From positions 23,837 through 87,836 of IMG/VR virus record IMGVR_UViG_3300009502_001749: 64,000 bases of DNA, one strand, 5' to 3'. The notes below the pieces were generated by a model. It did not search any database, was not told where the DNA came from, and saw only the letters and a list, made by a program, of their open reading frames with translations. The position numbers and the translations under genes are program-made. This stretch comes from a virus. Positions 250 through 48,043 of this stretch are shown here, piece by piece. Position 1 is the stretch's first letter; every line of letters begins with the position of its first letter.

Positions 250-543
250 ATGATTAGTGTTTCTTATTTATTTGAAGATGAAACTTTTCGAAAGAAGTTT
301 GATCAAGGTTCTTTAAGACAAGATATGATGATGGGTGCATTAATAGCTCCAACATCATTAGCTTTAAAAACTGCTATAGTTGATAAAGATATATTACATA
401 AATTAAATGTTGATCATCCTATGGCTGCTCCTACTGCTTTAGCTGCAGCTGCACTTGTAGGAGCTGGTAGTTCTGCAGCAGTTCATGGAGCAATTAAAGG
501 ATATTATAAGTTAAAGGATAAAGTAATTAATAAGAGGAAATAA
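250..543 (+). CDS. Leader-tagged small Gly/Ala-rich protein (putative internal head protein)
   Basis: RBS AGGAG; N-terminus MISVSYLFE; hydrophobic Ala/Gly segment; basic C-terminus. Confidence 0.6.
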   Translation: MISVSYLFEDETFRKKFDQGSLRQDMMMGALIAPTSLALKTAIVDKDILHKLNVDHPMAAPTALAAAALVGAGSSAAVHGAIKGYYKLKDKVINKRK

Positions 544-561
544 TTTTATGTAGGAGATATT

Positions 562-1308
562 ATGATATCTGTTATTTTGGAAATTTGGAATCCACCACCG
601 AAAGTGAATTTTACACAAAAAGTCATTAATAGATTTAGTGGTGAAAAACCACCCCCTCCGCCTCCTCCATCAGGATTTGATAGATACAAATCAGTAATTA
701 CTAATAAACAAGTTGAAAATAAAGATGCACGTTCAAATATTAATTGGAGAGATTTTGGTAAAATAAAAGAAAATATATCAAATTATAAACAATCTAAAGA
801 TGTTGAAAAAGGTTTAAATGAAAAATTAACTAGAGCAACAGCTGTTAAAAATACTAATGATGCTAGTAAACAATCTGCAAAATCTGCTGGTGAATTAGCA
901 GCAACAGAAGCTCAATCAGCAGCTTATAGTCAACAACATCCTATAAAAGCTGGATTAAAAAATTTACTTAGAATAGGATATTCTCCGGAAGAAAAAGCTC
1001 GAATATATGCAGATGCTGATCGAGAAAAATATGATTATAATAAAAATATATCTGATTCATTAAGAAATAAAAGTCAATCTTATAACAATGCAAATGAAGT
1101 TTTGCGTACTAATAAAACAACTTCACAAGAAGAACCAAAAGCTGTAACAACTGGACAACAAGCTATTCCTGTTGGTTCTGCTCCAAAAGCTTTACCGCCA
1201 GCCTCAAATAATAATATTCCAATTAGAAGACCAGTTGGTCCTTTAAATATGGATGAATTATTAAGAGATAAATTAAATAAAAAGAAAAGAGAACAAGTTA
1301 ATATATAA
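562..1308 (+). CDS. Leader-tagged low-complexity protein
   Basis: RBS AGGAG; N-terminus MISVILE; poly-Pro run; basic tail. Confidence 0.55.
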   Translation: MISVILEIWNPPPKVNFTQKVINRFSGEKPPPPPPPSGFDRYKSVITNKQVENKDARSNINWRDFGKIKENISNYKQSKDVEKGLNEKLTRATAVKNTNDASKQSAKSAGELAATEAQSAAYSQQHPIKAGLKNLLRIGYSPEEKARIYADADREKYDYNKNISDSLRNKSQSYNNANEVLRTNKTTSQEEPKAVTTGQQAIPVGSAPKALPPASNNNIPIRRPVGPLNMDELLRDKLNKKKREQVNI

Positions 1309-1326
1309 TTTTATATTGGAGAATAT

Positions 1327-1842
1327 ATGAAATCAATTAGAGAACAGTTATTTGAGAGTAAGAAAGAACATTCTGGTTATAAAATGGAAGATGTTGGTTC
1401 TGGTGCTGGTAAAGCAATTGGTGTAGCAGTAGGTAGTGTTCCAGGTATGGCTATTGGTCATTATATTGGAAAAGATTCACCACAACATCCTGATAATTCA
1501 ATTGATGAAAAGAAAAAATCACATCGAGTTGGAGCTATGTTTAATGAAAGATATAATGCAAAAAGAATGGCTAAGGGTGCTGGTATAGGCGCTGGTATAG
1601 GTGCTGGTATAAGTGCTGCCACAAGTGATTATAATCAAGATTTAAAAACAAATTTAATACACACTGCTGTTTCAGCTGGTATGGGTGCTATACCAGGTAT
1701 AATTGGTGGAAAAATGGTTGGAGGTTATAAAGCTGCTAAGAAACTTGGATATGGATCAGTAGGAAAAACATTTGCAACAACAATTCCTGGTTCTCTCACA
1801 GGACTTACAACACCAAAAAGACAAAAAGAAGAAAAGAAATAA
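1327..1842 (+). CDS. Leader-tagged glycine-zipper protein
   Basis: MKSIREQLFE leader; GxxxG zippers (GAGIGAGIGAG); Lys-rich end. Confidence 0.6.
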   Translation: MKSIREQLFESKKEHSGYKMEDVGSGAGKAIGVAVGSVPGMAIGHYIGKDSPQHPDNSIDEKKKSHRVGAMFNERYNAKRMAKGAGIGAGIGAGISAATSDYNQDLKTNLIHTAVSAGMGAIPGIIGGKMVGGYKAAKKLGYGSVGKTFATTIPGSLTGLTTPKRQKEEKK

Positions 1843-1856
1843 ATAGGAGGATTACA

Positions 1857-2096
1857 ATGATATCAGTTTGTAGATTATTTGAAATAAGTAAAGGTGGAGC
1901 TGCAGCATTAGGAGTAGCAGGTGGAACAGCAGCTGGAGTTGCCGGTGTAGCAGCAAAGAAAATGTATGATGAAGAAATGGCAAATCGAGTAAGAGAAGCA
2001 AATCCTATTAGAAAAGGTGCAAAATTTGTAGCGAAAATGTTTGATGATGGTGGACAATGGATTGGACGTAAAATTTGGGATGCTCATAATGGATAA
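1857..2096 (+). CDS. Leader-tagged glycine-zipper peptide
   Basis: MISVCRLFE leader followed by GGAAALGVAGGTAAGVAGVAA. Confidence 0.6.
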   Translation: MISVCRLFEISKGGAAALGVAGGTAAGVAGVAAKKMYDEEMANRVREANPIRKGAKFVAKMFDDGGQWIGRKIWDAHNG

Positions 2097-2110
2097 AAAT
2101 AAGGTGTAAA

Positions 2111-2989: not shown

Positions 2990-2995
2990 TTAATT

Positions 2996-3328
2996 ATGAT
3001 ATCAATTATGAATTTATTTTATGAAAATAAAAGTGAAGAGAAAGAGATAAAAGATTTTTTAAAGAAAGAAGTTACTAAAAGTCATATAAAAAATGTTTTA
3101 TCAACAGGAGCTCTTGTTGGTACTGCTGTAACTGGTGGAACAGGATTATATAATATGTATAAAGGTGGAAGTTTTGTTGGAGATGAACCTGGAAGTTATG
3201 ATTCTTTAAAAAGTGGATTACGTTCTGGAGTTGGTTCTGCAGCTTTAACAGGATTATTTAATATTGGAAATGTTAGAAATCAACGAAAAGAGATTGATAG
3301 TTTAAAATTTAAAAAGAAAAAATCTTAG
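2996..3328 (+). CDS. Leader-tagged glycine-zipper protein
   Basis: MISIMNLFYE leader; two Gly-rich hydrophobic segments; KKKKS tail. Confidence 0.6.
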   Translation: MISIMNLFYENKSEEKEIKDFLKKEVTKSHIKNVLSTGALVGTAVTGGTGLYNMYKGGSFVGDEPGSYDSLKSGLRSGVGSAALTGLFNIGNVRNQRKEIDSLKFKKKKS

Positions 3329-3339
3329 GAGATTTAATT

Positions 3340-3537
3340 ATGATTTCAATTGTTATGGAAATTAGTCCAGAATTTATTCAGAATAGAAATTTAACAGGTG
3401 ATAATAAATTTTCTCAAGAACAAATTCGAAATGCATTAGTAGAAAAAGCAAAATCGCCTGTTGGTTCTGTTGCTAGAGCTGAAGCTGATAAAGTTATTAA
3501 AGACACAAGAGCAACATTTCCTTATCGTAAAAAATAA
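3340..3537 (+). CDS. Leader-tagged small protein
   Basis: RBS AGGAG; MISIVME leader. Confidence 0.55.
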   Translation: MISIVMEISPEFIQNRNLTGDNKFSQEQIRNALVEKAKSPVGSVARAEADKVIKDTRATFPYRKK

Positions 3538-3574
3538 GATTTTGCCGGTAAAAATAATACTTAGTGAGATTAAT

Positions 3575-3856
3575 ATGTTATCAATTATGGAAACCAAATT
3601 TGGTGTAGCAATATTGAATGAAGTTGGAAATAGCAGAGTAATGAGAGAAAGATTAGCAACTAGTTATGATCAAAATTATAAAAATAATCCACTTAAAGCA
3701 GAAAAAGCTGCATTTTTAAATTTGAGAATAAGAGCAAATAGAAATGAATTAACACCTTTTGAAAAAGGTAGTTCAGATAATGACCCGAATAAAGTTAAAG
3801 AATATATAAAATCTTATTTACCAACACTAAATGAAAAAATTAGAACAAATAAATAA
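3575..3856 (+). CDS. Leader-tagged small basic protein (start revised to ATG 3575)
   Basis: MLSIMETKFGVAILNE; the KFGVA block is shared with the 4555 ORF. Confidence 0.55.
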   Translation: MLSIMETKFGVAILNEVGNSRVMRERLATSYDQNYKNNPLKAEKAAFLNLRIRANRNELTPFEKGSSDNDPNKVKEYIKSYLPTLNEKIRTNK

Positions 3857-3875
3857 TACTTTAGAGGTTAAAATA

Positions 3876-4526: not shown

Positions 4527-4554
4527 TAATCAAAAACAAAAGGAGAGTAATATT

Positions 4555-4758
4555 ATGAAGACGAATGAAGCAAAGTTTGGCGTAGCAGTAGTAGCATCAG
4601 TATTTGAAGTAGAAAATGCAATTCCTACAGATGGTGCATCTGATGTAACAACACCTGAAATTATAGCAAAAGCTATAAAGAGTGTTCTTGGAGTAGAAGG
4701 TTCTGATAGCGTTGCAGAAGCAAAAACAACTGGTGGAGATGCAACAGCAGATAGATAA
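4555..4758 (+). CDS. Leader-tagged small acidic protein
   Basis: RBS AGGAG; MKTNEAKFGVAVVASVFE. Confidence 0.55.
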   Translation: MKTNEAKFGVAVVASVFEVENAIPTDGASDVTTPEIIAKAIKSVLGVEGSDSVAEAKTTGGDATADR

Positions 4759-4773
4759 TTTCGGAGGTTTATT

Positions 4774-5315
4774 GTGATTAGTGTAAGTTATTTATTTGAG
4801 CTCGATACTTCAAATTTTACAAGAGAAGAAAAGAGACAATATCGTGAAGGTGCAAGAAAATTTCATCCTGATTTTAATGGTGGTAAAGATGAAGAAATGA
4901 AAAAACATAATAGTAGATGGGAACAGTTTGCTCACGCAAAAAAGTCTGGTTATAATAAATCATTTGATGATTATGCTGCTGAACAGAAAGCAAAAAACAA
5001 CAATCTTCTGGTTCTCAGCAACAATCTTCTGGAACGAATCAACCTGGTTCTCAGCAACAAAAGACAAATACTAGTTATGGTCACACTTATAATAAAGGAC
5101 AAGATTCTGGAACAAATCAATCTGGTTCTCAGAAAAACACAAATTCACAAAGTTCTAATTCTAAACAGAACACTGGAACAACAAATCAAAAACAAAGCAC
5201 AAATCAACAATCTTCTGCTGGAATAAATCAATCTAGTTCACAACAGAAAACAAGTTCAAAGCAATTTTATCCTGGATTTAAAAGTTCAATTTTTTCACAA
5301 ATAAGAAGAAAATAA
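4774..5315 (+). CDS. Leader-tagged partial J-domain (HPD) protein with a -1 frameshift into a Q/S/N-rich tail
   Basis: GTG start after GGAGG; MISVSYLFE; YREGARKFHPDFNGG. At A-AAA-AAC (4992-4998) the -1 frame reads QQSSGSQQQSSG... to TAA 5315, directly before the next RBS. Frame 0 ends at 5226. Confidence 0.65.
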
Positions 5316-5333
5316 TTTGGAGGTTTATTATAC

Positions 5334-5765
5334 ATGAAAACAATTAGAGAACAATTATTTGAAGGTAAGAAAGAAGATAATAAATTGAATAAAGCAGCAA
5401 AAATTGCTGGCACAACAGCTTTAACTGGCGCAGGTTTATATGGTGGAAAAGAATTAACAAGAGCTGTTATTGATGCATCAGAAGGTGGCGCACCTGCATC
5501 AGATACAATAGATGCTGTCGCATCACTTCATAATTCTACTATTGGAAAAATAGCAAGAGGAGTTAGCAAAGGTATTAGAAAAACTTTTACAAATGAACAT
5601 CCTTTATCAATTGAAGCAAAAGATAAAATGGGTGAATTAGCAGCTGGTACTTGGAAAGGAGCAAATCAAATTGGAGATATTGGAGGAGCTGTTGCAATTC
5701 CTGCGACAGTAACAGCATTAGGATTAGCAGCTTATAATAAATTAAAAAAAAATAAGAAGAAATAG
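5334..5765 (+). CDS. Leader-tagged Gly/Ala-rich protein
   Basis: MKTIREQLFE leader; two hydrophobic segments; KKNKKK tail. Confidence 0.6.
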   Translation: MKTIREQLFEGKKEDNKLNKAAKIAGTTALTGAGLYGGKELTRAVIDASEGGAPASDTIDAVASLHNSTIGKIARGVSKGIRKTFTNEHPLSIEAKDKMGELAAGTWKGANQIGDIGGAVAIPATVTALGLAAYNKLKKNKKK

Positions 5766-5781
5766 TTTTGGAGGTTTATTT

Positions 5782-5961
5782 ATGATTTCAATAATGGAAT
5801 CATTTTTTTGGACAGTAGAAGGTTTTGGAGAAAAAACTCCAAAAGAGGCATATACAATAACAGATGAATTTAAGCCTGATACAGAAATCAATAAAGATAA
5901 CTTATTAATACGAGATGAAGGAATAGGAACAGCAAAAAATAATTATGAGTCTCAAAGATAA
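5782..5961 (+). CDS. Small 59-aa protein with a MISIME leader (absent from the ORF track)
   Basis: RBS GGAGG; ATG 5782 to TAA 5961. Confidence 0.55.
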   Translation: MISIMESFFWTVEGFGEKTPKEAYTITDEFKPDTEINKDNLLIRDEGIGTAKNNYESQR

Positions 5962-7806: not shown

Positions 7807-8172
7807 ATGATTTCTATTATAAGACCGAATGCATTTTTAGGTGGAAGAGATTCTGATGATAGAACTAATAATTTTATTCCACTCGGTGGTAATATAATCA
7901 GAATAATCAAAATAAGATCAGTTCCAACAGAAACGGAAGAAGAGGTAAAAAATATGTCAGATTATGATGATGATAATATAGCAGATGACTATGATGATGA
8001 AAACATACAAGATCCAGATTTTTCTGAATTTCAAGATGAATTAGATCAAATTCCAGATGATGATGAAACACTTGATTCACTTCCAGATATTGATATTGAT
8101 GAATTAGATGTTGAAGATTTTGAAAATAGAGATGAAGAAGAAGATTTTGAGGGAATGGAAGATGACTTATAA
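7807..8172 (+). CDS. Highly acidic hypothetical protein
   Basis: RBS GGAGG; D/E-rich C-terminal two thirds. Confidence 0.6.
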   Translation: MISIIRPNAFLGGRDSDDRTNNFIPLGGNIIRIIKIRSVPTETEEEVKNMSDYDDDNIADDYDDENIQDPDFSEFQDELDQIPDDDETLDSLPDIDIDELDVEDFENRDEEEDFEGMEDDL

Positions 8173-8347: not shown

Positions 8348-8352
8348 ATAAA

Positions 8353-8599: not shown

Positions 8600-10322
8600 A
8601 TGGCAAGAAAAAAAGAAGATACAAATAAAAGTGCAAACAATAGTAGTTATGATTCTTCAAATTTTGAAAGTGCATCAACTAGTCAAGCTGAACTTTTGGG
8701 AACAGCATTTGAATCTATTATTACAACTAAATATGGATTTGCTAGAGCACCAGAACCTTATCTTACTCCATTTGGAATTCAACATTTGGATGGTTTAATT
8801 GGTGGAGGAATAACTTCTTCAGCACCAGTTATGTTAACATCAACTCCAGAAACAGGTAAAAGTACATTAGCTTTTCAGCTTTCAAAGATATTTCAAACAT
8901 TATATCCAAATTCGATGGTTGTTTATTTGGATATTGAAACAGCAGCAAATAAATCTAATAAAAATAATGCAATGTCTCGAGTTAATATATTTGAGATTGA
9001 TGAAAAGAGATTCAGGTATGAACCTTTGGTTATTGATATAAACCAGTTGTTTGAGTTGATCGAACAGTTGTGTCAAGTAAAACAAATGTTTGAACAAAAG
9101 TCACAGAAAGAGTTTAAAGTATTTATTATTTGGGATAGTATAGCGGCAACACCTTCTTCTAAAGTTGCTGACGCTGAAGATCCAAATAAAATAATTGGGG
9201 TTAGCTCTAGGCTTTGGCTCCAATAAAATCTTGTGAATTGCTGGAACACCCTTAAAACTTTTCTACTACAAAGTAATCTGAAAAGATAAACTTGAATGTT
9301 TAAAAAAGAAAAGATTGGGCAATCAGCAGCCGAGCTCCTAAAGAATCTGCTAAATTTTATGGAGAAGGTTCAACGACTAGTCGAAAGACGTAGAGTTTAA
9401 GTAAACTCGAAGCGCAAGACATTCAGAAATGAATGAAGATATAGTCTGATCTATATGGAAACATATAGCTGAATAAAATTCAGAAGAAGAATTAACGATT
9501 CTTCTTAAACACAAATGAAAAGCTCGCCAGTTAACATTTGCATTAGAAAAATATTTGCCAATGATGGCTTTTAACAGAATCACATTTCTTGCTATTGATC
9601 AAGTTCGTGCAAATCTTCAGATTGATCCTTACGCTCAAAAAGAAAAGTCAGTCGGGATCTTTAAAGATTATCGCGCCGCTACATCAATATCAGCTCTCAA
9701 TCATAGAGTTGCTCAATGGTTATTTTTATCCAGAAAAGCAGCTATAACACCAGATGATGGTTTGGGTATTAATGGTTGGCAGATGAATCTATATGTAGAG
9801 AAGAATAAAATTGCACCATCTCAAGAATCAATTACATGTGTTTTTGATAAAAGAAATGGTCTTCATAAATTTTGGAGTGAGTATATTTTCCTTAGTGAAA
9901 TGATGCCATCTGAAAAGAAATATTATAAAACTGAAGAAAAAATACCTTATCCATTATCAATTATAAAATCTGGACCTCAGGTTCATCTTGAGTTTATAGA
10001 TCCAACAACTGGAAATGTTACTTATTCATCAGATAATATGTATAAGAAAAATATGAACAAAGCATATGATTCAGATGCTCAATTTAAAGCTGCTTTTGAT
10101 TATGTTGTTAGTATGGCTGTTGAACTTAGAATTAAACAAGGTCTTTTTAGAGAGAATGAATCAAAAGTTAATTTAAGTTCTGAAGAGATTGAAGAATTTG
10201 AAACTGAAAGTCTTGTTGATGAAGATATAAATACACCTAAAATATCTGCCGCTGAACAAATTGTAGCAGAAATACCTTCAACTAATATTGAAACCGAAGC
10301 AACATATGAATCAATATTTTAA
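8600..10322 (+). CDS. recA: RecA/UvsX-like recombinase, spliced join(8600..9201,9518..10322), 468 aa
   Basis: TPFGIQHLDGLIGGG; Walker A STPETGKST; YLDIE; Walker B IIWDSIAA. Splicing restores IIGV-KARQLT, followed by IDQVR and KNKIAP. Confidence 0.88.
9202..9517 (+). ncRNA. Group I intron (no ORF, 316 nt) in recA
   Basis: P AATTGCTGGAA, Q AATCAGCAGCC, R GTTCAACGACTA, S AAGATATAGTCT. P1 TTGGGGT/GCTCCAA has the U-G splice pair; P10 GCTTT/AAAGC; terminal G; splicing restores the frame. Confidence 0.93.
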
Positions 10323-12774: not shown

Positions 12775-12975
12775 ATGGAAACGAAGGATGAACTATTAAA
12801 TAAATATAAACATGATCCTTATTTGTTTATGAAAGATTTTATTATGAAACCAGGTCAAATATTTGATAAAAATCATGAAAAATTATTTATAAATTTACGC
12901 GAATTTTTAAAGAAAAGAATTAAAGCTAATGTGCCGATAGAAGATATCATTCATAAGGAGAGATATAATGATTAG
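12775..12975 (+). CDS. Hypothetical protein
   Basis: RBS GGAG; 66 aa. Confidence 0.5.
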   Translation: METKDELLNKYKHDPYLFMKDFIMKPGQIFDKNHEKLFINLREFLKKRIKANVPIEDIIHKERYND

Positions 12976-13405
12976 TGTTAAACATTTATTTGAATCGTTA
13001 AATCAATCAAAGAAAATTGGAATTGTAGGATATTCTGCAATGAAGTTTGATGAAGATTTAGCTAAAAAATTAATTAATGAAGGACTAGATAATGTTGATG
13101 CTAAAGAAGGAGATGAACTAGTTTCTGGATTAACAGATTTAGGAATACCAGGATTGGCTTACAGAATTGGTAAAGAACGAAATATGAAACTTATAGGTAT
13201 AGCTTGTGAAAAAGCACATGATGAAGATAGTGTTTGTTATCCTGTTGATAGAGAAATAATAGTTGGAAAAAATTGGGGAGATGAATCAAAAACTTTTTTA
13301 GATTATATAGATGTTTTAATTAAAGTTGGTGGTGGAAAACAATCTAAAGAAGAATATGAAAAGTTTGATGGTCCTAAGATTAATTTTGAATTAGAATCTA
13401 AGTGA
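12968..13405 (+). CDS. Leader-tagged SLOG-superfamily protein (DprA/LOG-like fold)
   Basis: MISVKHLFE leader; IGIVG, LVSGLTDLGI, IGIA and VGGGKQS motifs. Confidence 0.65.
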   Translation: MISVKHLFESLNQSKKIGIVGYSAMKFDEDLAKKLINEGLDNVDAKEGDELVSGLTDLGIPGLAYRIGKERNMKLIGIACEKAHDEDSVCYPVDREIIVGKNWGDESKTFLDYIDVLIKVGGGKQSKEEYEKFDGPKINFELESK

Positions 13406-14602: not shown

Positions 14603-15211
14603 ATGATGTTATCATTAAGTTATCTTTTTGAAGAAGATGAAGATTTTGATAGAGAAGATATGATTGATCATTTTAACGAAAGAACACATAACCATATTTT
14701 TCTCGTAGAGAAATATTTAGATAAAATTATTAATTTAGAAGATTCAAATTTGGACAATTCTATTTTAGAAAAAGAAAAAGAAGGACATGATGAAAGTAAA
14801 TTTTTAGCACCAGAACATGAACCATATTTAAAAATCAATTGGCGTTATCATATGAAAGATAGAGGAATAGATTATAATCCTGGAAAAAAGATTGAAGATC
14901 AAATGCAAGCGGCAACTTTTCATCATGTGAAGAATAATAAACATCATCCCGAATTTTGGGATGAAAAAAGTACTATAGAAAACGTTAATAATAAAGATCG
15001 TGATAAACCACCAGAACAAATTGTGGATGCAACAAAAATGCAGTTAGAGTATATTGCTTGTATGGTAGCTGATTGGTGTGCTATGTCTGAAGAACGAAAT
15101 AGTGATCCTTATAAATGGGCAAAAGATAACATCAACGTTAGGTGGCAATTTACTCCAGAGCAAGAAAATTTTATTTATGATTTATTGGATGAAGTATGGA
15201 AAAAGAAATAA
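14603..15211 (+). CDS. Leader-tagged HD-fold protein (DUF5662-like)
   Basis: MLSLSYLFE leader; HI...HDESKF...HHVKNNKHHPEFW...MVADW. Confidence 0.7.
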   Translation: MMLSLSYLFEEDEDFDREDMIDHFNERTHNHIFLVEKYLDKIINLEDSNLDNSILEKEKEGHDESKFLAPEHEPYLKINWRYHMKDRGIDYNPGKKIEDQMQAATFHHVKNNKHHPEFWDEKSTIENVNNKDRDKPPEQIVDATKMQLEYIACMVADWCAMSEERNSDPYKWAKDNINVRWQFTPEQENFIYDLLDEVWKKK

Positions 15212-35667: not shown

Positions 35668-35901
35668 ATGATTTCAATTACAAATTTATTTGAAGAAATT
35701 TCAGCAGTAGATGATAGAATGAATTATGCTAGTGAAAGAATTGCTACATTACAAAGAGCTTTTAAAGCTGGAAGAATATCTGCAAAAATTTATCAACAAC
35801 AATTAAAACAATTCCAACAAGTTAAACGTGGAGTTCCATCGAAAGAAATGCCTGAAAGTGAAATTAAAGCAGCAGGCACATATTTAAATACTCAACAATA
35901 G
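35668..35901 (+). CDS. Leader-tagged small protein
   Basis: RBS GAGGT; MISITNLFE. Confidence 0.6.
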   Translation: MISITNLFEEISAVDDRMNYASERIATLQRAFKAGRISAKIYQQQLKQFQQVKRGVPSKEMPESEIKAAGTYLNTQQ

Positions 35902-35915: not shown

Positions 35916-38777
35916 ATGGATTTTGCATCAAACAGTACAAAAAAAGTTGTATCAAATTCTTTATTAAAAGCTTTCATATCAAGATATGTTGCAGAAGATT
36001 TTTTTACAAATATTGCAAGAATAATTCTTTATCCATCTGATTTTGGTAATTTTATTTCAGATAGAACAAATTCTGTAATTGATTATATGCAAGAATTTTT
36101 AAAGAGTTTATCAATTTTTTCTGGTAAATTACAACTGCAAAATACTAAAGTTGTTAGAAGTCAAATTGCTATTTTAAGTTCTTTATTAACAATTAGAGAA
36201 ACAAGTCCAATTTTATTAACTTATGATAATGTGAATCAACATTTAATGCCAGGACAAGATTTAATTGTTACTAAACTTATTCAAAAATGTGTTGATGAAA
36301 GAATTACTGATCCTGATGAATTTAGAAAAATTACAGATGAAATTATCAGTACAATTTCTTCTTATTATGAAATGATGTCAGCTTCAGATAGTATTACTAT
36401 GGTTGGGAATCTTTATGATTTGATTAATGAAGGTAATCTTGTGCCGATGGAAACATTAAAAAGTTATAAAGATGTTATTAATGTTGCATATAACGATTTA
36501 TCTAAATTACAATCTTTAAGTAAAGCTGAAACAGCTGCAGATTATTTTGTTATTTCAGATGATAAGTCTTGTGATGCATTATCAAAAACATTAGTTAATT
36601 ATGTGTCAAAAGGTTTTTCAGTATTTAAAACTGGTTTTGATTTATTTGATAAATATATTAATGGAATTGAAAGTTCCAGCGTACATTTGATAGGGGCTCC
36701 GAGCAACCACGCTAAGAGTTTGTTTACGATTAATCTCTCATATAGAATGATAAAAAATAATCTTGCCGATTTCGATAAACAAGATTGTATATTATTTGTA
36801 ACATTAGAAGATTTAGTTAATAACTAACTTTGTCTCTTTTACTGGTGACAGTAATTGAAAAAATCCGGTGAATTCAGGGAACATCCTAGTAATAGGACAA
36901 TCCTGAGCCAAGCTTTAAATCTTGCCGCTAACAAGATTTATTGAAGGTGCAACGACTATCCCGAAAGGGAGTACACTCAAGCGAGTGGAAGCGCCGGACA
37001 TCTTGAGAAATTTAATATTATGGAGTTATTAAAATGTTTAATGAAATGAATTACCCAGAAAAATATATTATAAGATTTTGGGACAAAGTAAATGTTCCAA
37101 AAGATTGGGCTGAAAAAGATCAATGTTGGAAATGGAATGGACTTTTATTTATAAAAACTAATTATGGAAGTTTTTCTTTTAATGGTAAAAATCTTAAAGC
37201 TCACAGATTCTCATATGAAATTCATTATGGTCCAATTCCTGAAGGATTAGATGTTATGCACAAATGTGATAATCGAAAATGTGTAAATCCAAATCATTTA
37301 AAAGTTGGTTCCAGAAAAGAAAATATGGAAGATTGTGTTGAAAAAGGAAGATCAAAATTTGGTTCTAAAAATAATATGTCTAAGTTAACAGAAAATAATA
37401 TTATAGATATTATTAATAAAAGTTTAAATGGAACATATACAAATAGAAATCAAGTTATTAATGATTATAAAATATCATTATCAGAACTTTCAAATATTCT
37501 TTGTGGAAAAAGATGGACACATATAACTTCTAATTTTACACAACAAGAAATTGAAAAAGTAAAATATTTATTAGGATGTAGGTTATCAATAGAAGATATT
37601 GCTGATATAAAAATGAGATTAGATAAAGGTGAATCACAAAGTTCAATAGCTAGAAGTTATAATATATCTCAACCGGTAATATCAAATATGATAAAATTTA
37701 TAAAACTCAAGATGATGAGATAGTCTAATCTTATAGGTAACTATAAGCAGTCTAATAAGACGGGTAGGGAGTAGCGATCTCTATTGAATAAAAATGGATA
37801 TTTACAAATTAATTCGTAGGTTCGCGTCAATATATGGAAATTATAAATTTGAATCTTTAAAAAGATTATTTTCAAAATCATATGAAATGACAAGAGCAAC
37901 ACAAATAATGGACATGTCAACTGAAGCAAGTTCAAGATTGTATAATAATTTAGACGGGATGTTTAAAAATGTTTTAAAAACAAGTATTGCTAAAGTAACA
38001 CAAGGTAAAGTTAATATAGCAATTAAACATTGTTCAGAGAATTCGTTTTCTCCTGGTGATTTAGGAAGATTTATAGATCGTTTGAATATTGAAGGTTATA
38101 AGATTAAGATGGTCTTTGTAGATTACTTAGATGTTATGTCTGCGACAATTAACAGATTTGGTGGAGCAGGGAAAGAATATGATATACTCGGTCAGATCAC
38201 ACAAGAACTTCGTAACTTAGCTCGTATACATAAAGTACCAATAATAAGTCCTACACAGAATAGAAGAGAGTCAGAGAATGTAAGCACAAAACTAAGTAAT
38301 GAACAAACTGGTGATTCATATAAAAAAATCAGATATTCGGATTTTATATATTCATGTAGATTAAGACCAGATTTAGATTTTCTATCTGAAGGAGTTAGAC
38401 ATCATGTGATTCCAACAAAAGTAAGTCCAGATGGAACAATTGCAGATTTTATTTCTCCAGAACTTATAAAACTTAAAGAAAGCTTATTTAGAGTATTAGT
38501 ACCTTTTGAAGTTAAAATTACAAAGTCAAAAGATTCAGAAAAAGATTCAACAAAATTTTTCTTATTTTGTAAAGAAAATTTGAGAATGTATAATAATGTA
38601 GATGAATATATTAAAGATGCTCCTGTTCTTGTTGCTAATAGTGAAAAGTTAGAGAAAGATATTGCTATATTAACTGAATTAGCTATTACAAGTGTTTCAA
38701 GTGGAATTAATGAATTTTTTGATAATGATCAGAGTGATATTGAATTTGGTGATATTCCAAATGTTGTTTTTGGATAA
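35916..38777 (+). CDS. DnaB/gp41-like replicative helicase, spliced join(35916..36812,37797..38777), 625 aa
   Basis: KTGFDLFD; atypical Walker A GAPSNHAKS; FVTLE; VFVDYLDVM; ELRNLA; SPTQNRR; GDSYKK; ITKSKD. Confidence 0.85.
36813..37796 (+). mobile_element. Group I intron with HNH gene, in the helicase gene
   Basis: P/Q/R/S nearly identical to the terL intron; P1 AGAT/GTCT; terminal G; splice gives TLED-DIYKL in frame. Confidence 0.92.
37034..37723 (+). CDS. Intron-encoded HNH homing endonuclease
   Basis: CWKW...KAHRFSYE...HKCDNRKCVNPNHL; paralog of the 24656 ORF. Confidence 0.9.
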   Translation: MFNEMNYPEKYIIRFWDKVNVPKDWAEKDQCWKWNGLLFIKTNYGSFSFNGKNLKAHRFSYEIHYGPIPEGLDVMHKCDNRKCVNPNHLKVGSRKENMEDCVEKGRSKFGSKNNMSKLTENNIIDIINKSLNGTYTNRNQVINDYKISLSELSNILCGKRWTHITSNFTQQEIEKVKYLLGCRLSIEDIADIKMRLDKGESQSSIARSYNISQPVISNMIKFIKLKMMR

Positions 38778-39917: not shown

Positions 39918-42900
39918 ATGTCATTATTTGGCCAGTTTTTTAAAGATGATTCACTTGAAAATTTTGATGCTAGAATAGATTCACTTGTTAGTCAATTTCC
40001 TTCTACTGAAAAAGGAGAACCAGTTGATTTGTTATCTGGAGATTTTATTTCATCGTTTATGGAACATTCATCTAAAGATGAACTTGAAAAAGTACTTGCA
40101 GGAATATCTGTTTCTAGAGATAGACTTGAAAGATATGCTGTTTATGATGAAGCATATAAATATGTACCAATTCTGAAACGTATGATGAAAGTTTATGTTG
40201 CTAATATTTTACAAAAGAATCCAGTAACAGGTAAAAGCGTTCTCATTCAAGAGTCTGGAGATTTAACAAAAGAAAAGCGTCAGAATAAAGAAATTTTAGA
40301 ATCGGCGAAAGATTTTGCCGATAAATGTATTAAATCATTCGATTTATTAGCTAGATTAAAAAACAAAATTTTACCAAATGAACTAACCTATGGTGACTGT
40401 TATCTTGAAGTTGTTGATGTGAATCAAGAAATTAAAAAATCTGATCCGGAAGGTGCTGCAGCAGTTCAAATGACTACGTTGTTTGAAGGTGATTTAATAA
40501 ATATGACTGCTGAAGTTGATCAAATGAAAAATCGAGCAAATGGTCATTTGCCGATAGGACAAATTGATCAATTATTATATAAGACCGCTGAATATTTGGC
40601 TGATATTGAAGTTGCTTCTATTACAGAGTATGATCCTAATGAAAAGGATGATGAAGATAAAAAGAAACAAAGTAATGGATCAACAAATTATGCTGATAAT
40701 TCATCAACAAAAACTAGTGATAAAGAAAACAAAAAAGAAGTTCAAGATTTTAATGATATTGTTATTAAAATTCATAAACCTCACAATATTATAGTTTTAC
40801 AAACAAACTATGGATCAACTATAGGATATCTTGAAGTTGCAAAAGATGAATTTCCTCAAGTATTTAATTTAACTCAATCTCTTTCAACTTTAGTAGGACG
40901 TATAACATCACTAGTAGGAAAAGATCAATTAAGTCAAGATAATGTAACTGATAGGATTGTTCGATTTATTGTAAAACAAGCATTAGATAAAGCTGATAAG
41001 TCTAAAGCTTTTGATATGAGTCAGCAGAATGTACAGAATATTAATGACATTCTGAAAAATTTAGACCCACAAGTTTACACTTACATTAAAAGATTAATTA
41101 TCGAACAAGGATTAAATCAGACACAGTCACAATATCTTAACAAGTTAAAGATCAGATTTATTTCTTCAAGCCGTATGATTTCATTTACAGTTCCATCGAA
41201 TGAGTATGATCCGTATGGAATTTCGTTTATTGATAATTTAGTATTTCAGTGTAAGTTGTATATTCTTTCACAGTTGTCTAATGTGATTATGAAGTTGAGT
41301 AGAGCTGCGCCAGTAAGAAAATGGACGATAGATACGGGCAGCACTCAAATGCACGCTAACTTGATTCAGAAGTTGAAACGTGAGCTTTACAATACAAGAG
41401 TAACATTAGATGATTTAGGTAGTTTTAAGAGTATTCCCAAGCTGTTAAGTGACTTCAAGGATAAATTTTTGTCCCCTATATCAGTAATGATATTTGAAAA
41501 ATTCGGTGAATTCGGTGGAACTCCTAGTAATAGGACAATACCGAGCCAAGCTTTAAATCTTGCTGCTAACAAGATTTATTGAAGGTGTAACGACTATCCC
41601 GAAAGGGAGTACGTCCAAGCGGACGGAAGTGCCGAATATCCTGTAATAGTAAAATAAAAAGTATGGAGGACAGCGCCGGCCAGCGTTGATAGATACCGAT
41701 TTATCTATCTTACTCCTTTTAAACAATTAACCTAATCGGAGGATTACAAATGAATAAAGAAAAAATTGAAAAAGCAAAACAAATTATAAAAAATTTTAAA
41801 AATGAGGAAGAACATTCAAATTTTATTTTTAAAATGTGTATTGAATGGAAATTATCTATTGAAGAAATTTCAGAATGTTATAATAATTATACTCCAGATC
41901 TCATTAAACAATTTTTGATTGAAGTGTATAAAGTTGAGTTTAAAAAGTGTAAAAAATGTTGTGAAACTAGATCAATAACATCTTTTACAAAACAATTTAA
42001 AGATAGTAATATAACTCGATCTTATTGTAAAGTTTGTAATAATCTTGAAAAAGCAAAATATAGAAAAATTCCAGAAGTGAGACAAAAAATATTGAATATG
42101 CTAAAGAATATAATCAAATGTATAATATTAATAATAGAGAACAAATTAAACAAACACATCATGAATATTATGAAACAAATAAAGATATTATATCTCAAAA
42201 ACAGAAAGAATATTATGAATTACATTCAGATGATGTTAAACAAAGATCAAAAGATTATTATTATGATAATCAAGAAAAATTTATACAACTTAGTATAGAT
42301 TATAAAAAACAACATCCAGAATGTGCTGAATACAGTAAAGAATATAATAAAATACATCATGATGAATTATTAGAATATAAAAATGAATATAATAGAAATA
42401 AATATAAAACAAATTCAAAACATAGATTAAGAGTTTGTTTTGGTTCAAATTTATATAATTCAATTAAGAATTTAAAAAGTGGTAGAAAATGGGAAGAAAT
42501 TGTTGGATATACTCTTGAACAACTTATGGAACATCTTGAGTCTAAATTTGATGATAAAATGACTTGGGATAATTATGGAAGTTATTGGCATGTTGATCAT
42601 ATTGTTGGAGTTGCAAATTTTAATTACACATCTTATGAAGATGAAGCTTTTAAAAAATGTTGGTCGTTAGAAAATTTACAACCTTTATATGGAGTTGATA
42701 ATCTTAAAAAAGGTGACACAATTAGTGAAAAATGGAATAATACTGAGTTAGCAGCTCAATTACTTATGTAACATAAAATTACAGGATAATGATATAGTCT
42801 AGTCTGTATAGTAATATACAGTTGTCTTTAAAAAGACAGGTTAGAAGTTGCGATTCTAGCTGAATATAAACGATGTTCGTGCTCGCGAAGGGCGGAAATA

Positions 42901-43448
42901 AACCTATAGATGTTGAAGTGACTTCACATGGCGACCCCACAATCAGAGTCGCAGATCTTGAAGATTCAAGAAGGGAAATAATGAGCTTGTCCGGCATACC
43001 CCCAGCATATTTGGGCTACGCGGACGTGATCGAATTGCGCGAGCAACTAGTTCACACAAACATCTCTTTCGCTACAGAAATAATTGATATGCAAGAGATA
43101 ATTACAGCTGGTCTTACAAAATTTGTAGATATTGTAGCAGAAATTTTAAATGTTAAATATAAACCATCGGAATACGTACAGATTAAATTAATTCCACCGA
43201 TAGTTTTAATTCTTCAGTTGATTGAGATGACTCTGTCATCAATTGGTAATATTAATGGAATATTTCAAACGTTACAAACTCCAGTTGATCCTTATTTCTT
43301 CTTAAAACAATATGTACCATATATTGATTGGGATGCGTTTAGAACAGCAGCAGATCAATATGTTACTGATCAAAAAACAAAAGCTGAAATAGATGCTAAT
43401 AAGAATCCTGGAAATTCGAATCCTGAACCTGGAGCTGAAGGAGGGTAG
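39918..43448 (+). CDS. Portal protein (gp20-like), spliced join(39918..41462,42873..43448), 706 aa
   Basis: LSRAAPVRKWTIDTG; splice gives LSDFKD-MFVLAKGGNKPIDVEVT; LSGIPPAYL; position upstream of protease and capsid genes. Confidence 0.85.
41463..42872 (+). mobile_element. Group I intron with a frameshifted HNH gene, in portal
   Basis: P AATTCGGTGGA, Q AATACCGAGCC, R GTGTAACGACTA, S GATATAGTCT; P1 GGAT/GTCC; terminal G 42872; in-frame splice. Confidence 0.92.
41750..42771 (+). pseudogene. Intron-encoded Zn-finger/HNH endonuclease split by a -1 frameshift at the A6 run 42084-42089
   Basis: Frame 1 has CKKC and CKVC. Frame 2 continues NIEYAKEYNQ... to WHVDHI...NLQPL...DNLKK. Confidence 0.75.
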
Positions 43449-43450
43449 TA

Positions 43451-43879
43451 ATGTTTTTAGTTGAAGTTTTATTTGAACAACAAACTCAAACACCATCCCA
43501 AGTTCCTCCAGTGCAAATTGTACAACATGTTAATCAGCCTGAAACTAAACAACCTGAACCTACTTCACAACAGGATCAAGATGTTCCTCAGGAACAACCT
43601 GAACAACAACTTTCAGGAGATGAACTGGATGCTGTTCAGGCACAAGAAATGGGAATTGCTCCAGATCTTATGCCGATAAAAAAATATTATTTAATCAACA
43701 GATTAAAAGAGTTAAAAACCCAATTGGGTGAGTACAGTATACAAAATGATGAACTTAATATTGTACTAAAATTTGCCGATAATTTATCTTATAGTTCATT
43801 ATTAAGTATTGGAATGATACTTATTGATTTTATTGAACAACAATTAGCGAGGTTAACAGATGGCAAAAATAAAAGCTAA
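43451..43879 (+). CDS. Prohead core/scaffold-like protein
   Basis: Between portal and protease; MFLVEVLFE N-terminus; Q/P/E-rich linker. Confidence 0.55.
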   Translation: MFLVEVLFEQQTQTPSQVPPVQIVQHVNQPETKQPEPTSQQDQDVPQEQPEQQLSGDELDAVQAQEMGIAPDLMPIKKYYLINRLKELKTQLGEYSIQNDELNIVLKFADNLSYSSLLSIGMILIDFIEQQLARLTDGKNKS

Positions 43880-44621
43880 GAAATATAATTTTATATTTGA
43901 AACCACCTCGATTAATTCACGTGATGATATTAAAGTTTTAGAAGAAACAAAATTGCCTAATGGTAATGGAAAAATTGCAGCCTCAGTTAGACTTCAGGAA
44001 GCAGAAATGAAGAATAGTAATAGTCGATATTACTCAACTGCGATTTGTGAATCCATAGTGAGTCAGTTATCTCCGAAAGCAACGAGTCGATCATTATTAA
44101 TGGAGATTGATCACCCACTTTTTGTAACTTCAGCTGACGATGTTAAAAGACGTGCGTCAATCGTAGAAATTAATAATTGTGGTGGTTTGTTAAGAAAGAT
44201 AGATTTTGCCAATAATAAAGTAGGTGGAATCTTTGAAACCCTTAGTGGATTTAAAGGTCCGGATTTGTACAACATAATAATGAAAGATCAGGTAGACATA
44301 GGATTTTCATTGAGAGCTCTTGGTGCAGTCGAACAGCTTCAGGATGGAACAATATTAGTCAAAGATCCTATAAAACCAATCACGTATGATGTAGTTTCGA
44401 ATCCAAGTCATGCAACGGCAAAAGTTCTTGAATTCTTACCAGAAAACGTTACAGAGTATATGTCTGAACACAGTGTGATTTATGAAGCTGCTGATATAGA
44501 AATGTTAGATTTAGATCATATAACAATTTCTGACAGTACAATTTCACTAACTGAATTTTTTGATGATATTTATAGACAGAAATTTTCAGATGTTATTAGT
44601 AGAATAACTTTTAGAGTTTAA
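43860..44621 (+). CDS. Prohead protease (T4 gp21-like)
   Basis: NSNSRYY; MEIDHP; GFSLRALG; ITYDVVSNPS (catalytic H/S/D). Confidence 0.9.
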   Translation: MAKIKAKKYNFIFETTSINSRDDIKVLEETKLPNGNGKIAASVRLQEAEMKNSNSRYYSTAICESIVSQLSPKATSRSLLMEIDHPLFVTSADDVKRRASIVEINNCGGLLRKIDFANNKVGGIFETLSGFKGPDLYNIIMKDQVDIGFSLRALGAVEQLQDGTILVKDPIKPITYDVVSNPSHATAKVLEFLPENVTEYMSEHSVIYEAADIEMLDLDHITISDSTISLTEFFDDIYRQKFSDVISRITFRV

Positions 44622-44655
44622 TTACTCAATATTATATTTAAAAGGAGATTTAATT

Positions 44656-47581
44656 ATGTACGATCAAGCGATATTCGAAAATTATGAAATGTTCTTAAAT
44701 GAGCATAGTGATGAATTTTCTACTCCAAGTGGAGCTTTAAAACTCATTACAGATAACGGTATGTTTAGGGGTTACATGGAAGGACTTACAAATGGTCTTG
44801 ATTCAAATCAGAGAGCAGTTGCTATGGCAGTTGCAAATCGTCAGAGAGAATATCTTTTGACAGAATCTGCAAACGTTCCTGGTAGTACACTTGCATTTGG
44901 TTGGACTGTACTTAGCTTTCCTATTCTTGTTGATATTTATGCTGAGCCAGTAATAAGTGAATTATGTAATGTTTATCCGGTTTCATCCCCAGTAGCATCT
45001 ATTCCCAGAATCAAAATCATGGCTTATATTAGAGGCTATGATGGTAACGTAACACAGGTCAGAATGCCTACGCTTAATCAGGCTGTTAGACCCGGTGCAT
45101 TGAATCTTACAGTAACACCTGCAGTAAGCAACAGCATATTTACTATAGCTTCAGCGGCAGTTGCTCCTGCAACAGTAACGTCTGATATGTACAGAATTAA
45201 TAGAAGGTATACACTTCTTACAGCAGTTCAGGTAGCAGAAACTACAGCTCTTGGTCCTGTTGTAAATCATAATGTTGTAGTAACAATAAAGCCTGATAAT
45301 AGAAATCAGTTTGTTGGTACTTTTACATTTAACGATAATACTCCTGCTCCTGTAGGTCCAGTTGCTATCGTTGGTACATTGAATGGTCATATTAATTATG
45401 ATTCTGGAATTTTTCAGTATCAGGTAATTTATGCTGTTGGCGCAACTACTTCTACATTTGCAACAACTTCAGCAACAATGACTATACGTTTTATGTCTCT
45501 GACAACTCAGAATGGTCGTATAAAGGTCAAAATTCAGACTGAAATGACTGACGTAAGTATAGATCAGAATGAAGATTTTCTCATCGAATTACCACCTGAA
45601 GATATACAAGATTTTCGCGCGATCAACAATTAAAGGTCGCTTTCACTAGTAATAGTGATCGAATAATTTTCCTAATTGCTGGAACACCCTTAGAGCTTTT
45701 CTACTACAAAGTAATCTGAAAAGATAAACTTGAATGTTTAAAAAAGAAAAGATTGGGCAATCAGCAGCCGAGCTTCTGTAAAATGAAGAAGGTTCAACGA
45801 CTAGAGCGCAAGCTCGTAGACTCAAGCGAGTCGAAATGGAAGAAATCCTTGAATATTTAACATTTTCATATAGAAATAATAAATTAAGTCTAGCCAACTT
45901 TGAACTAATTTATTATGGAGGTGAGAATGGAAAAAGAATGTTGTAAATGTCATCAAATTAAAGATGAATCAGAATTTGAAAAAAGAAATGATGTTAATTA
46001 TTGTCATAAATGTACGAGTATTAATAATAGAAGAAGAAAAATCAAGAAAAATACTCCAGAAGAAAACTTTCAATTCTTATATAAACTATATATGAGAGGT
46101 GAAACAGTAGAAGATTGTTGTTTGTACTTTGAAACATCTAATAATATTATCATTGAAGCTTTAAATCTATTTGGAATTTTTCCAGATCAAACTGATAAAT
46201 TATTTTGCTCAAAATGTAATCAAATGAAATCATTTGATGAATTTGATCAAAGTAAGAATAGAAGAGGATTTAAACCTTGGTGTAAAACATGTAATAAAGA
46301 ATATAATGATACATATTATGAAGATAATTCAGATTATATTAAACAAAAAACTCTTAATTACTATTATGAAAATTATGATATTGAAGTTGAAAGACGTATT
46401 AAATATCATTATGATCATAGAGATGAAATTCTTGAAAATAAACGTATAATGAGACAAAATGAAGAGTTTAAACAAAATAAAGCTATTTATGATGCATCAT
46501 ATTATGAAATATATAAAGAAGAAATTAAAGAAAATATTTATCAATGGAAAATAAATAATCCAGCAAAAGTAAGAGAAATACAAGAATTTTATCGTATAGC
46601 AAAATTACAAGCAACACCTAAATGGATTGATAGAGAAGAAATTTTAAAATATTATATTGAAGCTAGAAGATTAACAGAAGAAACTGGAATATTATATTCT
46701 GTTGATCATATCATTCCATTACAAGGTGAAAATGTATGTGGTTTACATGTTCCATGGAATTTACAAGTTATTACACAATCAGAAAATTGTAGAAAAAATA
46801 ATAAAGTTTTAGTAGAAATGTGATTGGCTATCACATTTCTTTTTGTTTTTCAAGGATTATGATATAGTCTAATCTCATAAGAAATTATGAGCTGTCTGAA
46901 TAAGACGAATAAAATTTAGCGAATTTTATTGAATATAAATGCTTTAAGATCGACATTTTACGTACACTTTCCGAAGCAATAAAAAGACAGATCATGTTGA
47001 ACAAAGATCAGGATCTTGCTTTCTTCTTAGCAGCTTCAGAAGGCGATATGGCATCTAACGGTGCTGCAGAAGCATTGAATCTTGATAGTTACGATGTAAC
47101 CGGCGGTCGTTTCGAACCTAACAAAGTTATCGATGTATTTAAGGCTGTAATTCCTAAGATTTCTATTCTTACTGGAATTATAAGAAAGAATTTCAACATG
47201 TATCCTTCTTATTTAGTAGCTGGTTTAAAGACTGCTGCTTTGTTAAGATCAGTTCAGACATTTGCACTCCAGATGCCGGGTATTGGAAATGGCGACGGCG
47301 CAATGGGTTGGGCAGGAGATGTTGCACAGATGTTGAAGATGAAAGTTCTTGAATCTAATGCAATCGCAGAAGGTAAGATATATCTTTCAACAAAAGCTCC
47401 GAATAATGCTCTTGAAAAATCTACTATAGTTGATTTGATTTATCAACCTCTCTACATCGTAACTGAGGTAACTGATGGTCAGACCAGAAACTATGTAAGA
47501 TCAAGAACTCTTATTGAAATTCCTAGAACAGATGGTCTTGGAGTTATCAATATAACTGGTCTTGGTACTTATTTTACGTAA
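44656..47581 (+). CDS. Major capsid protein (gp23-like), spliced join(44656..45623,46942..47581), 535 aa
   Basis: Follows the protease; propeptide ending LLTE. Splice gives DIQDFRAI-FKIDILRTLSEAIKRQIMLNKD, similar to gp23 QDLRAVHG..EIN. C-terminal YQPLY. Confidence 0.85.
45869..45880 (+). promoter_or_regulatory. Candidate phage promoter inside the capsid intron
   Basis: TATAGAAATAAT about 35-45 nt before the HNH start. Confidence 0.45.
45915..46823 (+). CDS. Intron-encoded HNH endonuclease with Zn fingers (start may be 45927)
   Basis: Four CxxC pairs; VDHIIPLQGENVCGLHVPWNLQVI...N..KNNK. Confidence 0.88.
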   Translation: MEVRMEKECCKCHQIKDESEFEKRNDVNYCHKCTSINNRRRKIKKNTPEENFQFLYKLYMRGETVEDCCLYFETSNNIIIEALNLFGIFPDQTDKLFCSKCNQMKSFDEFDQSKNRRGFKPWCKTCNKEYNDTYYEDNSDYIKQKTLNYYYENYDIEVERRIKYHYDHRDEILENKRIMRQNEEFKQNKAIYDASYYEIYKEEIKENIYQWKINNPAKVREIQEFYRIAKLQATPKWIDREEILKYYIEARRLTEETGILYSVDHIIPLQGENVCGLHVPWNLQVITQSENCRKNNKVLVEM

Positions 47582-47604
47582 GATTTAATTAATTAATATT
47601 TAAA

Positions 47605-47638
47605 TATCGGCAAGATCTGAAATATGATCTTGCCGATA
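47605..47638. repeat. Dispersed palindrome copy 5
   Basis: Identical to copy 2; directly after the capsid gene. Confidence 0.9.
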
Positions 47639-47662
47639 AATTTTATTTTTGGAGAATTAATT

Positions 47663-48043
47663 ATAATTAGTGTGAGTAGTTTATTTGAGATTGGAAAAAG
47701 TCCATTAATGCAAGATAAATTATTACAAGCTTCAAAAAATTATACACAAGATTCAATTAATCTCAAATCATCAAATTTAAAATCTGATAAACAAATGGGT
47801 CAAAAAGCATATTTAAAAAGTCAGAGAGCAGGATTTTTAGCAGATTCTATTAAAAATAGAAATTTAGATCAAACTAATCAAAATGAACCAAATATTAAAC
47901 ATCCAATTATTAATAAAATTAAACAATTTTGGAATCGTGATATAGGTTGGAAGTCTGATATGAATAATGTGAAAAAAATAAGAGAACGAGAATATCCAGA
48001 ACGAAAATTTAGTCAAATTAATAAAAAATTAATAAATAAGTAA
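47663..48043 (+). CDS. Leader-tagged basic protein with a probable ATA start
   Basis: GGAG at 47651, then ATA-ATT-AGT-GTG-AGT-AGT-TTA-TTT-GAG = (M)ISVSSLFE. Confidence 0.5.
   Translation: MISVSSLFEIGKSPLMQDKLLQASKNYTQDSINLKSSNLKSDKQMGQKAYLKSQRAGFLADSIKNRNLDQTNQNEPNIKHPIINKIKQFWNRDIGWKSDMNNVKKIREREYPERKFSQINKKLINK

Follow-up and report, generated by a model that had tools for sequence, protein, structure and literature searches.

Why should some two dozen otherwise unrelated proteins of one uncultured bacteriophage begin with nearly the same few residues? The question is raised by a 64,000-nucleotide stretch of viral DNA (hereafter, the window), which comprises bases 23,837–87,836 of one virus contig, 87,836 bp long and with 28.8% G+C (IMG/VR record IMGVR_UViG_3300009502_001749). 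A tag of 6–10 N-terminal residues, such as MISVSYLFE or MISIME, stands on 24 proteins of this contig (about 25 in 88 kb), that is, on about one in five genes of the fragment, and leaders of this kind are present in four related uncultured phages as well. A first-pass annotation of the window had proposed that the tag is portable and loads a swappable protein payload into the phage head for injection with the DNA. Here, our analysis suggests that the leader is probably a capsid-targeting propeptide of the bacteriophage T4 type, removed by a prohead protease.

The window encodes a contractile tail sheath (53987–56242), a UvsX-type recombinase, an RtcB ligase, and a head-maturation protease (43860–44621). 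Its closest relative, G1, is an IMG/VR contig of 285,572 bp (CheckV, 95% complete) that is syntenic with the window contig and encodes a protease 87% identical to that of the window; given the size, completeness, and synteny of G1, the window therefore represents about one third of an uncultured jumbo myovirus. The other relatives are G2 (68.7 kb; protease 64% identical), G3 (314.8 kb, with terminal repeats; 52%), and G4 (109 kb; 49%). Together with the window contig, these four relatives, each taken whole, make up the five-genome set used below, in which genes were called by a simple heuristic based on open reading frames (ORFs) and Shine–Dalgarno sites. Searches of GenBank phages by megablast (20 kb) and by tblastn (capsid protein and DUF5662) returned no relative and hence no cultured phage of the clade.

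The leader is conserved as a peptide and ends in a protease-type motif

In its long form, the tag is composed of a constant M-I/L-S-I/V half, two variable residues, and a C-terminal (L/I/V)-x-E. A strict version of this motif, M-[ILV]-[STP]-[ILV]-x-x-[LI]-[FLIVT]-E, was found at the starts of 9 of the 122 proteins of the window contig and 17 of the 460 proteins of G1 (both totals are approximate, given the gene-calling heuristic), while internally it occurred not once in 27,128 residues of the former and once in 87,510 residues of the latter. Likewise, [LI]FE lies within the first 12 residues of 14 proteins in the window contig and 27 in G1, where 0.9 and 2.6, respectively, would be expected from its internal frequency. 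Across the five genomes, 106 proteins start with M-[ILVM]-[STPN]-[ILVM], and an [LIV]-x-E ending was reached by residue 12 in 84 of them (79%), compared with 15% of internal controls that open with this tripeptide class (Fisher p = 1e-45). Within the tag, Glu is found at residue 6 (21 proteins), 7 (12), 9 (40), or 10 (9). Numbered back from a putative cut after this Glu (P1), position P3 is Leu in 52 proteins, Ile in 28, and Val in 4, and P2 is Phe in 41. The (L/I/V)-x-E ending is the cutting rule of the T4 prohead protease gp21.

Beyond the Glu the resemblance is lost, as had been noted in the first-pass annotation: the mature parts of the 24 carriers display no significant pairwise similarity, the best E-value (0.003) being a coiled-coil match. 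The conservation was also correctly placed at the level of the peptide and not of the DNA. The identical MISVSYLFE leaders of the genes beginning at 250 and 4774 differ synonymously (ATG/GTG, GTT/GTA, TCT/AGT, and GAA/GAG); the conserved Ser3 is encoded by AGY codons in 11 cases and by TCN codons in 17, and the Ile, Val, Leu, and Glu codons vary too. Between orthologues of the window contig and G1, a differing codon was observed at 24 of 71 conserved leader residues (34%), compared with synonymous differences of 30% in the rest of the leader genes and 26–27% in other genes. Since the leader rate is not below that of the other regions, its nucleotides are under no extra constraint. Among the recognizable genes, those for sheath, tube, terminase, replication, helicase, recombinase, and nuclease are all untagged.

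A gp21-family protease and its expected substrates bear the same motif

The prohead protease (43860–44621, plus strand, as are all leader, core, and capsid genes of the window) belongs to the S77/S80 family, which includes T4 gp21 and phiKZ gp175. Its earlier designation as gp21-like was substantiated by a match to the PHROG 207 head-maturation protease (4.7e-15), and its homologues, of which 241 were found, carry both Pfam PF03420 (S77, T4 gp21) and PF20034 (S80, phiKZ gp175). Alignment with T4 gp21 (AF158101) revealed 26% identity over 156 amino acids (aa), with H85 and S150 of the window protein matching H85 and S140 of gp21. Both H85 and S150 are invariant in 19 homologues. The corresponding H85 and S140 of gp21 constitute its catalytic pair. 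Two candidate self-cleavage sites were identified in the window protein, namely ...FIFE14, whose Glu is invariant and which is comparable to LIE-9 of gp21, and ...VIYE209, an invariant hydrophobic-x-E located about 45 residues before the C-terminus. Self-cutting near the C-terminus is characteristic of gp21-type and S80 proteases (PMC5694885).

Directly upstream of the protease gene, 43451–43879 encodes a 142-aa gp68-like candidate for a prohead core or scaffold protein, which starts with MFLVEVLFE; its G1 counterpart starts with MLLVEVLFE. T4 gp68, with 141 aa, occupies the same place relative to its protease and starts with MLLIPE...LVLE. On the other side lies the major capsid protein gene, whose exon 1 (44656–45633) and last part (46994–47581) are separated by an HNH-carrying insertion at about 45634–46990, both parts being spanned by one 535-aa ORF in G1. 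The capsid N-terminus, MYDQAIFE-NYEMFLNE, contains two tandem candidate sites. The capsid N-termini of the relatives read MKTLFE-NYELFIRE, MDTLFE-NYEMFIKE, and MELPLFE-NYEHFITE, and the motif [LI]FE-NYE-x-F-[IL]-x-E is kept in four relatives. The only solved structure related to the capsid protein is PDB 7x30 (1.6e-9), and a literature search by this code returned nothing useful. The capsid, core, and protease proteins, which are the expected substrates of a gp21-type protease, thus share the motif of the leaders at their own N-termini.

Leader genes of the window contig

All 16 leaders listed in the first-pass annotation were recovered, each immediately after a GGAG-type ribosome-binding site, and nine further leader genes (e.g. 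MISISYLFE, MLSIYKLFE, and MVSIVME) were found upstream of the window, in the first 23.8 kb of the contig. One of the latter reaches into the window: the C-terminal part of a 147-aa DUF5661 protein (Pfam DUF5661, 8e-15) occupies 2–235, while the leader with which it starts, MLSIYKLFE, is at genome position 23628, 208 nt before the window begins.

The M[IL]S[ILV]xxLFE class is represented by seven genes. Two of them start with MISVSYLFE, one encoding a basic, Gly/Ala-rich protein of 97 aa (250–543) and the other, with a GTG start, a protein of 150 aa (4774–5226) in which a weak J-domain match with an HPD motif was detected (Pfam DnaJ, E 0.005, below cut-off). The others are MISVCRLFE (1857–2096; 79 aa), MISVKHLFE followed by a linker and a SLOG/LOG-fold domain (12968–13405; 145 aa), MLSLSYLFE followed by an HD-like DUF5662 domain (14606–15211; 201 aa; Pfam 1.7e-22), MISITNLFE (35668–35901; 77 aa, basic), and (I)ISVSSLFE (47663–48043; 126 aa). 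A short class, M[IL]S[IV]x(0-2)[ILVM]xE, includes MISVILE (562–1308; 248 aa, basic, with no G1 homologue), MISIVME (3340–3537; 65 aa), MLSIME (3575–3856; 93 aa), which is followed by TKFGVAILNE to give two candidate cleavage sites, and MISIME (5782–5961; 59 aa). In addition to the MFLVEVLFE of the core candidate, variant leaders were found as MISIMNLFYE, with LFYE in place of LFE (2996–3328; 110 aa), as the T4-like MKSIREQLFE (1327–1842; 171 aa, with a weak Gly-zipper-like match) and its partner MKTIREQLFE (5334–5765; 143 aa), and as MKTNE...VFE (MKTNE...KFGVAVVASVFE at 4555–4758; 67 aa), again with two candidate sites. Mid-way in this main array of leader genes stands a leaderless gene for a gp5/VgrG-like spike protein (2111–2989), in which an OB domain and beta-helix repeats were recognized through weak Pfam matches only.

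Two genes are of ambiguous status. The gene at 47663 has ATA in place of a start codon, with a good GGAG 8 nt upstream, and its G1 orthologue starts with ATG and reads MISVSILFE; either the start is a rare non-canonical one, or the gene was disabled recently. Directly 3' of the capsid gene, at 47604–47638, a perfect inverted repeat of 13 bp was observed (TATCGGCAAGATC ... GATCTTGCCGATA), which looks like a terminator or processing hairpin. An in-frame ATG upstream of 47663 is an unlikely start because it lies inside this terminator-like hairpin. The second gene, at 7807–8172 and absent from the first-pass list, encodes a very acidic protein of 121 aa that is kept in G1 and G2; its family contains 40% Asp plus Glu and starts with MISIIR..., without an early hydrophobic-x-E. 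Its membership is uncertain, and the protein may be targeted but uncut, or else unconnected with the tag.

The leader is portable

The portability claimed in the first-pass annotation is borne out by the SLOG and DUF5662 domains, both of which are leaderless outside the clade. For the SLOG protein, 112 homologues were identified, about 100 of which begin right at the first beta-strand (MK-IGVVGYS), and only seven, all from the clade, carry MIS[IVL]xxLFE together with a variable linker of 3–8 residues. AlphaFold modelled the SLOG protein with a predicted local distance difference test (pLDDT) score of 89.8; residues 1–10 average 52, whereas most of the domain reaches about 90 or higher, and the part beyond the leader adopts the LOG/SLOG fold (TM-score 0.63–0.71 to 1ydh, 5its, and 2iz5); the model places the leader outside the folded domain. 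Other SLOG homologues bear add-ons of 10–11 residues that end in hydrophobic-x-E (MTRLEQYIEE, MNNFKEYLIE, and MRNLIKSIFFE), and a metagenome scan for the SLOG homologue P0128 gave no match. At 23 further IMG/VR loci with SLOG, crude gene calls recovered 20 SLOG genes, mostly leaderless, and the SLOG extensions at four loci (L083 and L089–L091) are not shared by adjoining genes. Among DUF5662 homologues, [LIV]FE by residue 12 is a feature of 29 of the 38 closest and of none of the 82 distant ones. DUF5661 is leaderless in G3, and in Vibrio phage VPs20 it is found inside a head-module DUF2213 protein.

A different short tag was encountered among homologues of the same families. In another phage (IMGVR_UViG_3300028603_004324; L077:3620-8996), M-[NSDT]-W-[YF]-K heads four adjoining genes, and this MNWYK-type tag also stands on 15 distant DUF5662 homologues and two SLOG homologues (proteins P0178, P0205, and P0290-P0351). 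The MNWYK tag and the clade leader are linked through these common payload families, SLOG and DUF5662.

Carriers are small, mostly basic, and diverse

In the five genomes, 92 carriers fall into 74 sequence families, 50 of which are singletons, with at least 37 carriers in G1. Of the carriers of the window contig, 14 have an orthologue in G1, which in every case is tagged as well, and in one orthologue pair the leader type was swapped, MKSIREQLFE in the window contig corresponding to MISITE in G1. The description of the payload as swappable is supported as a trend only, a G1 homologue being absent for 8 of 22 leader genes versus 21 of 95 others (p = 0.18). Carriers are short (median about 85–105 aa), and their mature parts have an isoelectric point above 9 in about 70% of cases, compared with 30% of other small proteins (p = 2e-8). 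Several mature parts are Gly/Ala-rich with weak Gly-zipper matches, and some contain hydrophobic Gly-rich stretches.

Recognizable domains among the carriers of the window contig are SLOG/LOG, the HD-like DUF5662, DUF5661, and the weak, below-cut-off J-domain of the gene at 4774, and tagged domains in the relatives include an HD domain and a LigD 3'-phosphoesterase. The LigD 3'-phosphoesterase protein (Pfam 6.5e-20) carries the leader MLSILTLLE in G3 (L045:14046-14474) and MISLTNLFE in G1 (L020:17576-18013). Together with the RtcB ligase of the window (60515–61825, minus strand), it hints at nucleic-acid end repair among the phage's tools. A search for literature on DUF5661 and DUF5662 found none.

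Proposed mechanism and alternative explanations

By analogy with T4, from which we infer core binding, cleavage, virion presence, and injection, the two halves of the leader would have distinct roles. The N-terminal half, M-I/L-S-I/V, would serve as the address by which the protein is held to the prohead core during assembly, while the [L/I/V]-x-E end (mostly L-F-E at residues 7–9, or I-x-E at 4–6 or 5–7) would be the site cut by the gp21-family serine protease once the shell has closed. The mature protein would then remain in the head and exit with the DNA. We hold the propeptide interpretation itself with good confidence; whether most carriers are delivered into the host we consider an evenly balanced matter.

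Several points weigh against this interpretation. The dominant MIS[IV]... leader is without sequence similarity to the T4 capsid-targeting sequence (CTS), which only the two MK[ST]IREQLFE copies resemble, and 22 of the 106 MIS-type starts, including that at 7807, have no early [LIV]-x-E. The window protease scores 21.4 bits against the Pfam S80 model, for which the cut-off is 23.4. The tagged SLOG and DUF5662 enzymes are located among recombination and nuclease genes, outside the head module, and both the proposed cleavage and the proposed packaging are read from sequence. Some tagged proteins may, in addition, be core or scaffold parts that get degraded and are not payload; the gp68-like protein may be such material, degraded rather than delivered, and so, perhaps, may the Gly/Ala-rich carriers.

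Extended to most carriers, this last point becomes an explanation in its own right, in which the tagged proteins are targeted and cut, yet are mostly prohead-core or scaffold components (like T4 gp22, gp67, and gp68) or DNA-condensing internal proteins that act in head assembly and not as effectors after injection. Many carriers are indeed small and of low complexity, Gly/Ala-rich or coiled-coil-like, and without an enzyme domain; the gp68-like protein bears the tag, and the region between the protease and capsid genes yielded no separate gene for a large scaffold. However, the folded enzyme or ligand-binding carriers (SLOG/LOG, DUF5662, HD, and LigD 3'-phosphoesterase) would make poor scaffolds, and the set of carriers differs between relatives, unlike core assembly parts. 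We regard this explanation as unlikely, yet it is the strongest of the alternatives and differs from the favored one in degree. We give far less credence to the possibility that the leader is the recognition tag of another machinery, be it a modifying enzyme, a degron, or a membrane or secretion signal. Hydrophobic Gly-rich stretches in some cargo would suit it, as would eight radical-SAM genes in G3; but no radical-SAM gene was found in the window contig, G2, or G4, the one weak match in G1 has no leader gene within 12 kb, and the capsid, core protein, and protease are headed by the same motif. Sec, Tat, and lipoprotein signals are 15–30 residues long and combine a charged n-region and a hydrophobic core with an A-x-A or lipobox site; at 6–10 residues, ending in Glu and without a lipobox Cys, the leader is too short and of the wrong shape, and this candidate was rejected. 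A link to a radical-SAM maturase, of the kind acting on ribosomally synthesized and post-translationally modified peptides, found no support either, as the window contig, G2, and G4 carry the tag without the enzyme gene and G1 has it only as the weak, distant match.

The explanation that we consider hardly credible is that the conserved element is one of nucleic acid, either an mRNA 5' translation-initiation enhancer or a DNA recombination joint for cassette exchange. The leaders do stand at initiation regions with similar AT-rich spacers, and T-even internal-protein loci swap genes at conserved flanks. The use of both unconnected codon families for Ser3 is, however, at odds with such an element, as are a leader synonymous difference rate (34%) no lower than the 30% and 26–27% found elsewhere, the variable positions 5–6 falling within the element, and the highly expressed capsid, sheath, and tube genes lacking a MIS start. 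As neither the codon-family test nor the synonymous-rate test was supportive, the translation-initiation and recombination-joint readings were therefore dropped. As regards the G3 radical-SAM genes themselves (L048-L049), seven of the eight matches are found within about 9 kb (record positions 216,700–225,300) and the eighth in this part of the genome at 191.8 kb, with a further one at 272.5 kb; this cluster is absent from the window contig, and one of its members starts with MVKASQIFEE.

Returning to the capsid-targeting propeptide, a broader interpretation may be put forward, tentatively, as possible though not favored: a clade-wide plug-in loading system, in which dozens of proteins would travel in the capsid as a first-wave toolkit (SLOG/LOG, HD/DUF5662, LigD 3'-phosphoesterase, and J-domain-like proteins among them), the same payload families having been recruited independently under the MNWYK tag in another huge-phage lineage. 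If so, these phages would possess a conserved injected arsenal that includes nucleotide-handling and nucleic-acid end-healing enzymes, rather than lineage-specific oddments. Should the tag act as its T4 counterpart does, loading of the capsid through a removable address would not be peculiar to T-even phages but a general device that large phages can expand greatly. The tag also gives a simple criterion for recognizing from sequence which proteins of an uncultured phage are probably injected or internal to the head, and it flags the SLOG, DUF5662, and DUF5661 orphans as candidates for early counter-defence or repair functions. As a possible tool, it would provide a second, very short tag with a defined cut site for packaging foreign proteins.

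Insertions in neighboring genes

Several genes of the window are interrupted. A group I intron at 9149–9468 (Rfam RF00028, 93 bits) splits the uvsX-type recombinase into 8600–9226 and 9555–10322, and the G1 recombinase is a single unbroken ORF of 467 aa. Inserts with an HNH-type endonuclease ORF were found in the capsid gene (insert 45634–46990; ORF 45915–46823), the portal gene (41583–42980; 42118–42771), the terminase gene (24453–25478; 24656–25357), and the DnaB-type helicase gene (36828–37793; 37034–37723), and none of these four was called an intron at the Rfam gathering threshold. The G1 counterparts of the capsid (535 aa), portal (702 aa), and terminase (618 aa) genes are unbroken.

Comparison with known systems

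In T4, the CTS is carried by the internal proteins IPI, IPII, and IPIII and by Alt, and is cleaved off by gp21, the prohead protease (Mullaney and Black 1996; PMC9026906, PMC3012670). Its first 10 residues suffice; residues 4 and 7, in the N-terminal part, matter for targeting, and residues 8 and 10 for processing (PMC9026906). As in T4, the clade possesses a gp21-family protease, its capsid, core, and protease proteins carry the motif of the leader N-terminally, and the genes are ordered portal, 141/142-aa core protein, protease. Like the CTS, the clade leader is an N-terminal peptide of about 10 residues that is common to unrelated, mostly basic small proteins and ends in (L/I)-x-E; T4 IPII and IPIII are basic as well. 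The two MK[ST]IREQLFE leaders match T4 MKTYQEFIAE (AF158101) at M1, K2, (T3), E6, [LI]8, and E10, while the dominant MIS[IV]xxLFE has only [LI]-x-E in common with it and differs in the address half, M-I/L-S-I/V. Unlike that of T4, the clade leader occurs in two length classes, with Glu at 6/7 or 9/10. T4 has a handful of carriers, whereas the 88-kb contig has about 25 and G1 at least 37, among them folded enzyme-type domains (SLOG, DUF5662/HD, and LigD phosphoesterase). Leaving aside the sequence of the dominant leader itself, the clade appears to agree with the T4 CTS/gp21 system in the sequence-level features that could be computed.

A second point of comparison is provided by phiKZ, 201phi2-1, and SPN3US, in which the propeptides of head and ejection proteins are cut by the S80 proteases gp175 / gp245 (PMC5694885, PMC7411985). 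They, too, are jumbo myoviruses, and their protease, a member of the S77/S80 clan, cuts behind Glu; processing affects many of their head-internal proteins, and the propeptides are thought to target proteins to the prohead. However, the phiKZ/SPN3US motif is (A/S/G)-x-E, and most of the propeptides comprise 79–130 residues or more and are individual rather than a shared short tag, in contrast to the clade tag of 6–10 residues, which is near-identical across carriers and has a hydrophobic P3. The MNWYK-type tags resemble the clade leader in being short N-terminal peptides on the SLOG and DUF5662 families, but they are of unrelated sequence, lack a terminal Glu cutting motif, and belong to a different phage lineage. 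Polyvalent or MuF-type and DarA/DarB-type packaged proteins likewise deliver enzymes with the DNA, although there the enzymes are fused to a large structural or carrier protein, whereas the clade would use a removable short tag on separate small genes. Loading by a removable leader is already known from T4, and the version proposed for the clade is a much enlarged one.

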